Below, in pieces: positions 6,378 through 9,214 of a stretch of DNA of 54,543 nucleotides. The stretch comes from an uncultured Flavobacteriales bacterium (GTDB lineage: Bacteria; Bacteroidota; Bacteroidia; AKYH767-A; 2013-40CM-41-45). The stretch is taken from assembly GCA_964356415.1 (NCBI GenBank), contig CAYHHK010000009.1:1-54543 (forward strand), read 5' to 3'. Position 1 is the stretch's first letter. Each line of letters starts with the position of its first letter. The notes below the pieces were generated by a model. It had not been told where the DNA came from and ran no database searches. It saw only the letters and a list, made by a program, of their open reading frames with translations. The position numbers and the translations under genes were made by a program.

Positions 6378-7539
6378 TGAAGTCATAGCCTCGGTGGACA
6401 GGGGCAGATCAGGACTGAATGAAGGACTTTCCCATGGATTACCCAGGCTGGTTCCGTATATCCCCAACATTCAGATGGGGAGTATCAATTTGATTGCGGG
6501 AATGCCGGGTAGCGGGAAGAGTGCGCTGGCCACATCATCTTTTGTCAATGCGCCTTATGAAGATTTCTTGGTAAATAAGTCCGAGACTTACAAGCTGAAG
6601 ATCATCATCTGGTCAATTGAGATTAACAAGGTGATGTTGTTCACCAAACTGATTTGCAGATATTTATTCTACAAGTACCGGATACTGGTGGACATTAACT
6701 ATGTTCTTTCCCGGGGTGAAAACCGAATCTCGCAGGAGATTTACGACAAGGTTATCGAGGCTCACGATTATTTTGAAGCCTTTGAAGATGTTGTCACGGT
6801 TCTTGGCCCGGATAATCCTACGGGAATCCGTAACACACTGCTAAATTACCTGCGTGAAAATGGGCGTGAAGAATACATTGAAGCCCACGTAGCGCGTAAA
6901 GATGCATTTGGTAATGTGATTCTTGTTGATGGAGAGCCGGTAACTGACGTCAGAATGGTTCACGATAAATTTACTCCTACTCATCCCAATCACTACGTCA
7001 TAGCAATGGTTGACCATGTGGGTATTCTCAAACGTGAACGAGGGTTCAATAAAAAGCAATCCATTGACAAGCTTACCGAATACATGGTAGAAATGGCCAA
7101 CATTCACCGGATCATCCCGGTTCTGGTTCAACAGGTGAACCGTAACAATGAAAACTGGGATCGCCAGAAAGCCGGTGGCACCGACATTCAACTCGGAGAC
7201 TTAAAGGAATCCGGGGATACTGTCGATGCTGCTCATAATGTGATTGCGCTCAACTATCCGCAACGCTTTAATTTACACGAATATCGTGGTTATAATCTGG
7301 ATCGTCTTGCTGACAGAGCCAGGTTTTTATCGGTACTGAAAAACCGCGATGGTAATGCCAACATTCAACTTGGTGCAAAATTTCTCGGTGAAATTGGCGC
7401 ATTTACTGAACTGCCAGATGCTTCGCACATGACAGAACAGGTGTATGCACAACTCGCCTCATATCAAAAATACATTGACCTAAACCAAACCATAAATGAT
7501 AACATTACCAACAGTACCAATAGCGCCAACCAGTTGTAA
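6364..7539 (+). CDS. DnaB-like replicative helicase (RecA-type C-terminal domain)
   Basis: Motifs seen are Walker A GMPGSGKSALA, Walker B VIAMVDHVG, and the blocks ESGDTVDAAHNVIAL and LKNRDGNAN, which are typical of DnaB/gp4-type helicases. Confidence 0.85.
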   Translation: MGLFDEVIASVDRGRSGLNEGLSHGLPRLVPYIPNIQMGSINLIAGMPGSGKSALATSSFVNAPYEDFLVNKSETYKLKIIIWSIEINKVMLFTKLICRYLFYKYRILVDINYVLSRGENRISQEIYDKVIEAHDYFEAFEDVVTVLGPDNPTGIRNTLLNYLRENGREEYIEAHVARKDAFGNVILVDGEPVTDVRMVHDKFTPTHPNHYVIAMVDHVGILKRERGFNKKQSIDKLTEYMVEMANIHRIIPVLVQQVNRNNENWDRQKAGGTDIQLGDLKESGDTVDAAHNVIALNYPQRFNLHEYRGYNLDRLADRARFLSVLKNRDGNANIQLGAKFLGEIGAFTELPDASHMTEQVYAQLASYQKYIDLNQTINDNITNSTNSANQL

Positions 7540-8014
7540 CCCAGCCAGGGTGGTGCTTTATTCTCCACCAAAAATGGGGAAAACAACTTTTGCTTCGCAG
7601 CTTGAGAACAATTTGATTCTTGACCTTGAGGATGGTAGCAACTTCGTTACCGCCCTGAAAGTTAAAATCACTTCTCTCGCTGAACTTGATGATACATGCA
7701 GAGCAATTCTCGCCGCCGGTAAACCATATAAGTATGGAACCGTTGATACCATTTCTCGTCTCGAGTTGTGGTGTGAAGGCGAAGCTACGCAGGATTATAT
7801 GAACAGCGGCATTGGCAAAAGTTTCAACAGAGTTAAATCAACAGGAGCGATTCTACCCAGGCACGAGTGGGAATCAGTACTGACTTTGCCAAATGGTGCC
7901 GGCTACTTTTGGCTTCGTAAATCGTTCAAAATGCGGATAGCACGCCTCCAAACTTGTTTCGAACATCTTATCCTCATCGGGCACATGAAGGATAAGACCA
8001 TTGAAAAACAGGGT
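7496..8014 (+). CDS. Sak4/AAA_24-like RecA-family ATPase, exon 1
   Basis: VVLYSPPKMGKTTFA (P-loop), LILDLEDG, GTVDTISRLE and HLILIGHMKDK match the AAA_24 pattern. Past 8014 the frame continues into intron-derived sequence and reaches a stop at 8054-8056. Confidence 0.75.
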
Positions 8015-9001
8015 GAACTTTTTGCCCTTACCTATCTAATTGCTGGAATATCCTAAAGACAATAAACTACAACGTAATTTGAAAAGATCAGCGTGAATGT
8101 TAAAAATTATTGTATGAAACAATGGACAATCAGCAGCCAAGACCCTAAAACGAAAGTAATGGGTAAGGTTCAGAGACTATCTCGTAAGAGAGTACACAAT
8201 TTAAAACTGTGGAAATGGTAGGAGTAACAATAAAAACAGTAAAAATATACACACTTGAGCATCCTATAACACAGGAAATTCGGTATGTAGGTAAAACAAC
8301 ACAGACTTTAAATCGTAGGTGTAACGGGCATATTAGTAAAAGATCAAATGCACACGTTACTTGCTGGGTTAAAAGTTTAAAAAAGCAAAATTTGTTTCCG
8401 AAAATACAATTACTTGATGAAGTAGATTATCAAATCTGGGCTGAAACTGAAAAATATTGGATTTCACAGTTACGCACTTGGGGATTTAATTTATGTAACC
8501 ATAGTGATGGCGGAGAAAGTGGAAGAGAAGGTGTTTCTTTGACTCAAGCACAGAAAGATTATTTATCTGTATTGAATACAGGACGCACCATGTCTGAACA
8601 ATCAAAACTAATTATTGCTCAAAAAGTTAGTGCTGCATGGCGACGTAAGCAACTGGCACAAGTGTTTAAATACCAACAACCAAAAATTGCAAAAGAACAG
8701 TATGTTTTTACACAAGACCATAAAACCAATATTAAAAACAGATTAGTAGGCAGGAAATTACCGCAATCAGTAATTGATAAAATGGTAGAAACTCGCAAAA
8801 AATCTATTCAACAGTGTGATAATAACGGATCTATTATAAAATCTTGGGATTCTGCAAAAACAGCATCTGAAGTTTTAAACATTAATAGTTCGACAATACG
8901 ACATTGTTTACGTGGCAGTAAGAAAACTGCCGGAGGTTTTAAATGGTCTTTTTGTTACTAAGATATAGTCCAGCCCCTTTAGAAATTTTGGGGAACAACT
9001 G
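8015..9001 (+). mobile_element. Group I intron (td-like) interrupting the Sak4-like ATPase gene, carrying a GIY-YIG endonuclease ORF
   Basis: - P1: exon AGGGT (8010-8014) pairs with GCCCT (8024-8028), with a U.G pair at the splice site.
- P10: TTTTT (8019-8023) pairs with exon 2 AAAGA (9002-9006).
- P7: GACTAT (8175-8180) pairs with ATAGTC (8965-8970), as in the T4 td intron.
- P9: hairpin CCCC 8974-8977 / GGGG 8990-8993.
- The terminal G is g9001.
- The junction is in frame and gives ...IEKQG|KEVNAVELDL. Confidence 0.7.
8215..8961 (+). CDS. GIY-YIG homing endonuclease (I-TevI-like), intron-encoded
   Basis: KIYTLEHPITQEIRYVGKTTQTLNRRCNGH is the GIY-YIG core, followed by EKYWISQLRTWGFNLCNHSDGG. 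The C-terminal NUMOD1-like HTH is IIKSWDSAKTASEVLNINSSTIRHCLRGSKKTAGGFKWSF. The ATG is at 8215; the ORF track starts at a GTG at 8209. Confidence 0.85.
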   Translation: MVGVTIKTVKIYTLEHPITQEIRYVGKTTQTLNRRCNGHISKRSNAHVTCWVKSLKKQNLFPKIQLLDEVDYQIWAETEKYWISQLRTWGFNLCNHSDGGESGREGVSLTQAQKDYLSVLNTGRTMSEQSKLIIAQKVSAAWRRKQLAQVFKYQQPKIAKEQYVFTQDHKTNIKNRLVGRKLPQSVIDKMVETRKKSIQQCDNNGSIIKSWDSAKTASEVLNINSSTIRHCLRGSKKTAGGFKWSFCY

Positions 9002-9214
9002 AAAGAAGTGAACGCTGTCGAGTTGGACTTAACCGGCAGACTAAAATCTATCACCTGCGCTGATGCTGATGCTGTCGGATACCTTTACCGGGACAGTGAA
9101 AGTAAACTGCGCATCAATTTTGCCGCCTCTGACAATGTACTTTGCGGAAGCAGGCCGGCACATTTAGCGGGTGCTGATGTCGAGGCCTTATGGTCAAACA
9201 TCTTCATAGATTAA
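9002..9214 (+). CDS. Sak4/AAA_24-like ATPase, exon 2
   Basis: KEVNAVELDLTGRLKSITCADADAVGYLYRDSESKLRINF matches the C-terminal AAA_24 pattern (l.gk....  .D.vg.l). It is in frame with exon 1 once 8015-9001 is removed. The spliced product would be 243 aa. Confidence 0.65.
   Translation, partial: KEVNAVELDLTGRLKSITCADADAVGYLYRDSESKLRINFAASDNVLCGSRPAHLAGADVEALWSNIFID

Follow-up and report, generated by a model that had tools for sequence, protein, structure and literature searches.

Introns are known from crAss-like phages, where the intron-bearing genes include ATP_43b, which encodes the crAss AAA ATPase, and where they were detected via endonuclease domains, with no splice sites or RNA structures given (Yutin et al. 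2021, PMC7886860). Here we analyse a comparable insert on the forward strand of a stretch of 54,543 nucleotides (nt) from an uncultured Flavobacteriales bacterium (contig CAYHHK010000009.1 of assembly GCA_964356415.1, hereafter the window), in which a crAss-like phage gene for an ATPase of the AAA_24 (Sak4-like) family is split by a segment that contains a GIY-YIG endonuclease open reading frame (ORF). We consider it likely, with a probability of about 0.88, that positions 8015-9001 correspond to a mobile group I intron, of the IA2 type known from phages, that interrupts the ATPase gene in phase 0 after the codon for Gly173 and is predicted to splice and to home.

Among deposited phages, cr50_1 (MT774375; Suoliviridae, Delta group) belongs to the same phage order and carries a group I intron with an endonuclease ORF in the same host gene family. 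Its AAA_24 gene consists of two coding sequences (CDS) around a hypothetical ORF, with a break after the equivalent of residue 166 (site B below) that is followed by a group I-like core; this break is 21 nt upstream of the window's insertion site and there is apparently extra sequence between the helices P1 and P3. From cr50_1, we infer that ATP_43b is the AAA_24 gene. An intron in a crAss AAA_24 gene is then a known kind of event, and the statement in the initial annotation of the window that introns are not commonly reported in Sak4-type genes has to be dropped, considering that ATP_43b was already listed (PMC7886860) and that the AAA_24 gene of cr50_1 is split. A full-text literature search for introns in Sak4 genes as such returned no paper, only incidental co-occurrences. 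What is new here is the insertion site (site A), a splice and structure model at the nucleotide level, and the presence of one intron family at three sites of the gene.

The td intron of phage T4, with its endonuclease I-TevI, is likewise an IA2 phage intron in a conserved DNA-metabolism gene, and its endonuclease also combines an N-terminal GIY-YIG domain with a C-terminal DNA-binding domain. The td intron has a P2 helix and bears its ORF in the loop of P6a, whereas the window intron has its ORF in the P8 loop (L8), lacks P2 and joins P1 to P3 by only 2 nt. The label "td-like" that had been given to the window intron thus holds for the IA2 subgroup and for the helices P7.1 and P7.2, but neither for the position of the ORF nor for P2. 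IA2 introns of phages of Gram-positive bacteria (Staphylococcus Twort/K-like, Bacillus SPO1-like, Enterococcus and Listeria phages) have P7.1 and P7.2 placed as in the window, while their hosts and host genes differ; some of these introns also have an ORF in P8. A blastn search of deposited phages with the window intron matched its 5' core only (8030-8248), in 157 records at 70-85% identity, mostly from phages of Gram-positive bacteria: they included Staphylococcus, Bacillus, Enterococcus, Listeria and Vibrio phages, the Flavobacterium FPSV phages and Rudgehvirus jaberico. The 5' cores of FPSV-S29 (MK764449) and of Rudgehvirus jaberico (OQ198719) are 84.6% and 71% identical to that of the window, respectively, and both introns have the same layout, with the core, a GIY-YIG ORF in L8, AAGAUAUAGUC and then P9. 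Their endonucleases are distant from that of the window, and the host genes are an unannotated gene in FPSV-S29 and a "DNA helicase" gene in Rudgehvirus jaberico.

The exons of the window gene give a first line of evidence. When left unspliced, the frame of exon 1 reaches a TAA codon at 8054-8056, 14 codons into the insert, which yields an ORF of 186 amino acids (aa), while a 68-aa ORF starts at 9008, at an in-frame GTG located two codons into exon 2. Joining 8014 to 9002 creates an in-frame 243-aa ORF with the junction ...IEKQG/KEVNAVELDLTG, so that the insertion falls in phase 0 between codons Gly173 and Lys174. The initial annotation had proposed this very product, and an alignment of 23 sequences agrees with it: homologues pass through the join with no gap, G173 and E175 are invariant, K174 is nearly invariant, the junction consensus of the homologues reads IEKKGKEVxAKDLDLTG, and the start at 7496 matches their M(I)ELPK... 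starts. A protein search with the spliced protein gave 1,794 homologue matches, and the best 120 of these (after the window's own truncated 186-aa ORF was set aside) are uninterrupted proteins of 221-265 aa, most of them of 232-247 aa, with nearly all of the matches spanning 99-100% of the query. The AAA_24 gene is also uninterrupted in all of the best 80 loci from IMG/VR.

The identity of the host gene, which had been read as Sak4-like with an AAA_24 domain, was confirmed by profile searches. The spliced protein scores 73.1 bits against PF13479 (AAA_24; cut-off 27), and the match, which covers profile positions 2-139 when exon 1 is used alone, extends to positions 2-173 once the exons are joined, thereby crossing the junction. 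PHROG 124, annotated as "Sak4-like ssDNA annealing protein", matches the ATPase with E = 3.4e-20, and a Walker A motif (GKT) is found. These matches support that the product is a member of the AAA_24/Sak4-like family, with a putative role in SSB-dependent annealing. The phage relatives of the protein in deposited genomes belong almost all to Crassvirales or to unclassified phage contigs from gut metagenomes, under annotations that range from RecA and Sak4-like to "flagella-related protein H" and ATP-binding protein. The closest homologue (64% identity) is encoded by an uninterrupted, intron-less AAA_24 gene with the same gene order as in the window: a DnaB-like helicase gene, the AAA_24 gene and then genes for proteins of 117, 265 and 327 aa (132, 272 and 334 aa in the window).

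The insert itself, with a GC content of 34% compared to 46% in the flanking genes, contains a recognizable group I core. The Rfam group I intron model RF00028 matches 8031-8222 with 42.5 bits, at E-values of 3.5e-9 in a local scan and of 1.5e-7 in one of the whole window, over model positions 50-157, which correspond to P3, P4, P5, P6, J6/7, the 5' strand of P7 and the 3' strand of P3. A second and weak piece of the model, aligned to 8796-8992, falls on AAGAUAUAGUC and on the P9 hairpin, in the region of the P7 3' strand and P9. Scanning the entire window with RF00028 at E <= 0.01 returned 8031-8222 only, with no match at 2-1980, where a candidate group I intron with a LAGLIDADG gene has been proposed in PolA, and the intron is present once in the assembly. 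P7.1 and P7.2, located between the 5' strand of P7 and the 3' strand of P3, both covary in the family, and on account of these two helices we assign the intron to subgroup IA (IA2 type). The group I assignment of the initial annotation therefore stands on this core match and on covariation among 15 family members, and all of the coordinates that it had given were exact on re-reading (Table 1).

Table 1. Coordinates of the exons, the predicted intron and its structural elements in the window, and guide pairings of family introns in AAA_24 genes.
Feature	Position	Strand	Details
Exon 1, AAA_24 (Sak4-like) ATPase gene	7496..8014	+	519 nt, 173 codons; ends ...AAA CAG GGT
Exon 2, AAA_24 gene	9002..9214	+	213 nt, 70 codons + stop; begins AAA GAA GTG
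Predicted group I intron, subgroup IA2-type	8015..9001	+	987 nt; Rfam core match and covariation
Predicted GIY-YIG homing endonuclease gene	8215..8961	+	248 aa; in P8 loop (L8)
P1 hairpin	8010..8028	+	AGGGU 8010-8014 / guide GCCCU 8024-8028; 5 bp
U.G pair at 5' splice site	U8014.G8024	+	P1
P1, possible extension	8015-8017 with 8021-8023	+	
P10 guide UUUUU	8019-8023	+	adjoins P1 guide; can pair with AAAGA 9002-9006
P10 target AAAGA	9002-9006	+	first bases of exon 2
5' catalytic core	8031..8222	+	RF00028 42.5 bits; RNAalifold and pair counts
P3	8031-8036 with 8217-8222	+	
P4	8041-8046 with 8130-8135	+	
P5	8051-8053 with 8124-8126	+	plus P5a/b extension
P6	inside 8136-8166	+	
J6/7	5' of P7 5' strand, in 5' core	+	
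P7	8175-8180 with 8965-8970	+	GACUAU with AUAGUC; 3' strand invariant in 15/15 aligned relatives
P7.1	8180-8191	+	UCUC-GUAA-GAGA, GUAA loop
P7.2	8195-8198 with 8208-8211	+	
P8 5' strand	8223..8230	+	AGUAACAA
P8 3' strand	8952..8959	+	UUGUUACU, then J8/7 AAGAU
P9.0	8972-8973 with 8999-9000	+	AG with CU
P9	8974-8981 with 8986-8993	+	GAAA loop
Terminal G of intron	9001	+	
Guide pairings, site A, window			P1 AGGGU/GCCCU; P10 UUUUU/AAAGA; P9.0 AG/CU
Guide pairings, site A, L196			P1 GGGU/GCCC; P10 UCUUU/AAAGA; P9.0 AU/AU
Guide pairings, site B, L165			P1 AAGGAU/GUUCUU; P10 UUGUU/AACAA, one base in from splice site; P9.0 AU/AU
Guide pairings, site C, L149			P1 GCAGGU/GCCUGU; P10 GAAUA/UAUUU; P9.0 GU/AC
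Guide pairings, site C, L086			P1 GGGGGU/GCCCUU; P10 GUAAUA/UAUUAC; P9.0 GU/AC

The structure was then compared across the family. A scan of IMG/VR with TAATTGCTGGAANNTCNTAAAGA collected at least 111 loci, including some introns without an ORF. For a first comparison, the 3' strand of P3 was set by complementarity and P8 was taken as the six bases that follow it against the six that precede J8/7: over 23 distinct introns, an average of 5.9 of the 6 P8 pairs could form, compared to 3.2 after partner shuffling, with none of 5,000 shuffles reaching the observed value (one intron, L095, was dropped because the automatic search for its P3 3' strand had chosen a doubtful site). For a second comparison, 15 family members with trimmed L8 loops were aligned by MAFFT without structural guidance. 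From this alignment, RNAalifold returned P3, P4, P5, both parts of P6, P7.1, P7.2, P8 and P9, with compensatory changes in 35 of 46 pairs. Once P7 had been added to the pair count as a pseudoknot, 96% of the cells were paired, compared to 35-47% when partners were slid by 1-3 columns, and 0 of 500 shuffles reached any of five pairing measures. P4 and P7 are invariant across the 15 members and hence uninformative on covariation. In relatives, P9 is a stem of 7-8 bp closed by a conserved GAAA loop. Since L9 is such a loop and since a conserved UCCUAAAG ... AAUGGA sequence at P5 (8049-8056 and 8121-8126) resembles the 11-nt GAAA-tetraloop receptor (CCUAAG...UAUGG), a tertiary contact between L9 and P5 is plausible.

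Additional evidence for the splice sites comes from introns of the same family in other AAA_24 genes. Using the spliced protein as the query, tblastn against intron-bearing loci showed that the family splits such genes at two more sites: site B, after the equivalent of D166 (HIKD/KQVDDKGE), at five loci (L186, L152, L165, L106 and L156), and site C, after the equivalent of G136 (PNGAG/YLY...), at five others (L148, L149, L086, L099 and L103). Splicing in silico at site B or at site C gives full-length AAA_24 proteins. Site A itself is occupied in a second lineage, on a 2,531-bp Logan contig (ERR3569146; L196) whose AAA_24 gene carries two family introns, at sites C and A, each with a GIY-YIG ORF. 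Its site-A junction, ...LDKAG/KEVSAKDIDLTG, is exactly at the window's site; the two site-A introns share 67% nt identity over 1,053 nt and differ by compensatory changes in P3, P6, P7.1 and P9.0. Scans for further site-A introns with the pattern GCCCNTANCTATCTAATTGCTGG matched three viral contigs, in which the intron is unrelated, has no ORF and interrupts a different gene, and matched nothing in metagenomes. In every case compared, a guide just 5' of P3 complements the last 5-6 bases of the exon, with the splice-site base in a U.G pair; the bases that adjoin this guide pair with the first ones of exon 2, and J7/9 pairs with the dinucleotide that precedes the terminal G (Table 1). P1 and P10 thus covary with their exon context, which is strong evidence for both assignments. 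The U.G pair at the 5' splice site and the terminal G also occur in five relatives for which protein homology sets the junction. The intron of Rudgehvirus jaberico was omitted from this independent test of P1: an attempt to set its junction by homology of the interrupted "DNA helicase" to the DnaB-like protein of the window failed, as the two proteins are unrelated.

The ORF in L8 most likely encodes a homing endonuclease of the GIY-YIG class, as the initial annotation had suggested. PF01541 (GIY-YIG) matches residues 13-94 with 28.6 bits (cut-off 22.6), PF22083, a C-terminal NUMOD/I-HmuI-like DNA-binding domain, matches residues 206-245 with 34.9 bits (cut-off 27), and the motifs KIY...RYVG...R...E...N can be read in the sequence. 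A search of PHROGs with this protein returned no family. Its closest relative, P0122 on L196, shares 56% aa identity and also an overlap of its start codon with the 3' strand of P3; in the window, the stop codon additionally overlaps the 3' strand of P8. Because the ORF starts and stops within these strands, translation of the endonuclease and folding of the ribozyme should exclude each other.

Several points weigh against our reading of the locus. With 42.5 bits, the intron does not reach Rfam's gathering score of 50 bits, and at that threshold a scan of the window gives no match; we attribute this to the 739-nt P8 loop with its ORF, which divides the model match into two pieces, and three introns of the same family that have no ORF reach 82-93 bits on the entire model, above gathering. 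A junction 8013/9001 would encode the identical protein, and 8014/9002 was preferred solely by the rule of a G-paired U as the last exon base and a G as the last intron base. As for the endonuclease, TIGR01453 ("group I intron endonuclease") is matched end to end, over positions 4-205 of 215, with E = 1.6e-10, but its 41.4 bits fall short of the curated cut-off of 56.05, and a sequence search of the PDB at E <= 1 found no relative among solved structures, the I-TevI chains included. Lastly, the P9 stem of the window copy has 4 G-C pairs and one A-U pair but also three consecutive U.U mismatches at positions that are paired in relatives, among them the site-A intron of L196, which might have cost the ribozyme some of its fitness.

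These mismatches, together with the low Rfam score, are also what would be expected from a decayed group I intron that splices poorly or not at all, leaving the ATPase inactivated or reduced to its 186-aa N-terminal fragment. Decay of the endonuclease does occur in the family, as its gene is deleted at L156. Nevertheless, we find such decay quite improbable for the window copy: its core helices P1, P3-P8, P7.1 and P7.2 are all intact, its endonuclease ORF is intact, both exons are open and keep their conserved residues, the identical sequence was assembled on six contigs, and the ATPase gene belongs to the replication core of crAss-like phages (PMC7886860). Far less probable still is that the 186-aa and 68-aa ORFs are separate genes around a free-standing GIY-YIG endonuclease gene with no intron, which is how GenBank annotates the comparable loci of cr50_1 and Rudgehvirus jaberico. 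Indeed, over 1,700 homologues span both ORFs as one continuous protein with no gap at the join, the insert has a complete ribozyme core with covariation support, and the 68-aa ORF merely starts at a GTG inside exon 2. Removal of the insert as an intein, or its bypass by ribosome hopping or frameshifting, is hardly conceivable, for nothing specific points to it beyond the inteins found in other genes of crAss-like phages (PMC7886860), while the host frame stops 14 codons into the insert, the insert ORF has another context and matches GIY-YIG nucleases with no Hint domain, and the RNA structure is of the group I type.

If the insert is indeed a functional group I intron, its expression would follow the established chemistry of this class. 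Once the pre-mRNA had folded into its P3-P9 core, P7 would bind an external guanosine for the attack on the bond after U8014, presented by P1 (AGGGU/GCCCU), and P10 (UUUUU/AAAGA) together with P9.0 would position the 3' splice site after G9001 for ligation of the exons. The ligated exons would then read ...AAACAGGGU|AAAGAAGUG... at the junction, and the resulting mRNA would encode the complete ATPase of 243 aa. The endonuclease, a GIY-YIG/NUMOD protein with its gene in L8, would most likely cut intron-less alleles of co-infecting relatives near the conserved site, and repair would copy the intron into the cut allele. While splicing is inferred from the sequence comparisons above, the endonuclease activity and homing are suggested by the family membership of the protein and by the distribution of the intron. 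Intron-less alleles are highly conserved at the insertion point, which reads AAGAAAGGT/AAAGARGT in 74 loci. In the site-B intron of L156, the endonuclease gene is internally deleted (L8 of 157 nt versus 641 nt), and this deletion, together with the ORF-less members of the family, fits the cycle that homing elements usually go through. The low GC content of the intron, its absence from the closest homologue and the diverged copy at site A of L196 are further signs of a mobile element.

Sites A and B are only 21 nt apart, with B upstream, and I-TevI-type GIY-YIG enzymes cut their target at roughly this distance upstream of the insertion site. Each of the two introns could therefore disrupt the sequence that the endonuclease of the other recognizes or cleaves. 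One could then speculate that, in crAss-like phages and related phages of Bacteroidota, the AAA_24 gene is a hot spot for one GIY-YIG-bearing IA2 family at three sites or more, with A and B introns that compete and are mutually exclusive, an idea that we regard as unlikely at present; in the few lineages seen, C co-occurs with A (L196) and B never does.

The main value of these results lies in annotation, and our understanding of group I introns or of homing is unchanged. The window gene is best annotated as one spliced CDS, join(7496..8014, 9002..9214), plus an intron-encoded endonuclease, rather than as two fragments, and GenBank records such as those of cr50_1 and Rudgehvirus jaberico call for the same change. 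A structure and splice model is now available for an intron family with a wide distribution among Bacteroidota and crAss-like phages, one that has invaded one core replication gene at three sites. In the record of cr50_1 (54222-55973; L195), the two parts of the split gene are named "nucleotide-binding protein" and "hypothetical protein", with the endonuclease as a gene of its own and no intron feature; in that of Rudgehvirus jaberico (OQ198719, 69903-72242; L001), two "DNA helicase" CDS flank an endonuclease given as a free gene, again with no intron feature. On the viral loci L105 (778-1063 and 1175-1408) and L156 (6615-6842 and 7938-8228), Rfam detected two more full-length group I introns each, so that these phages appear to be intron-dense.

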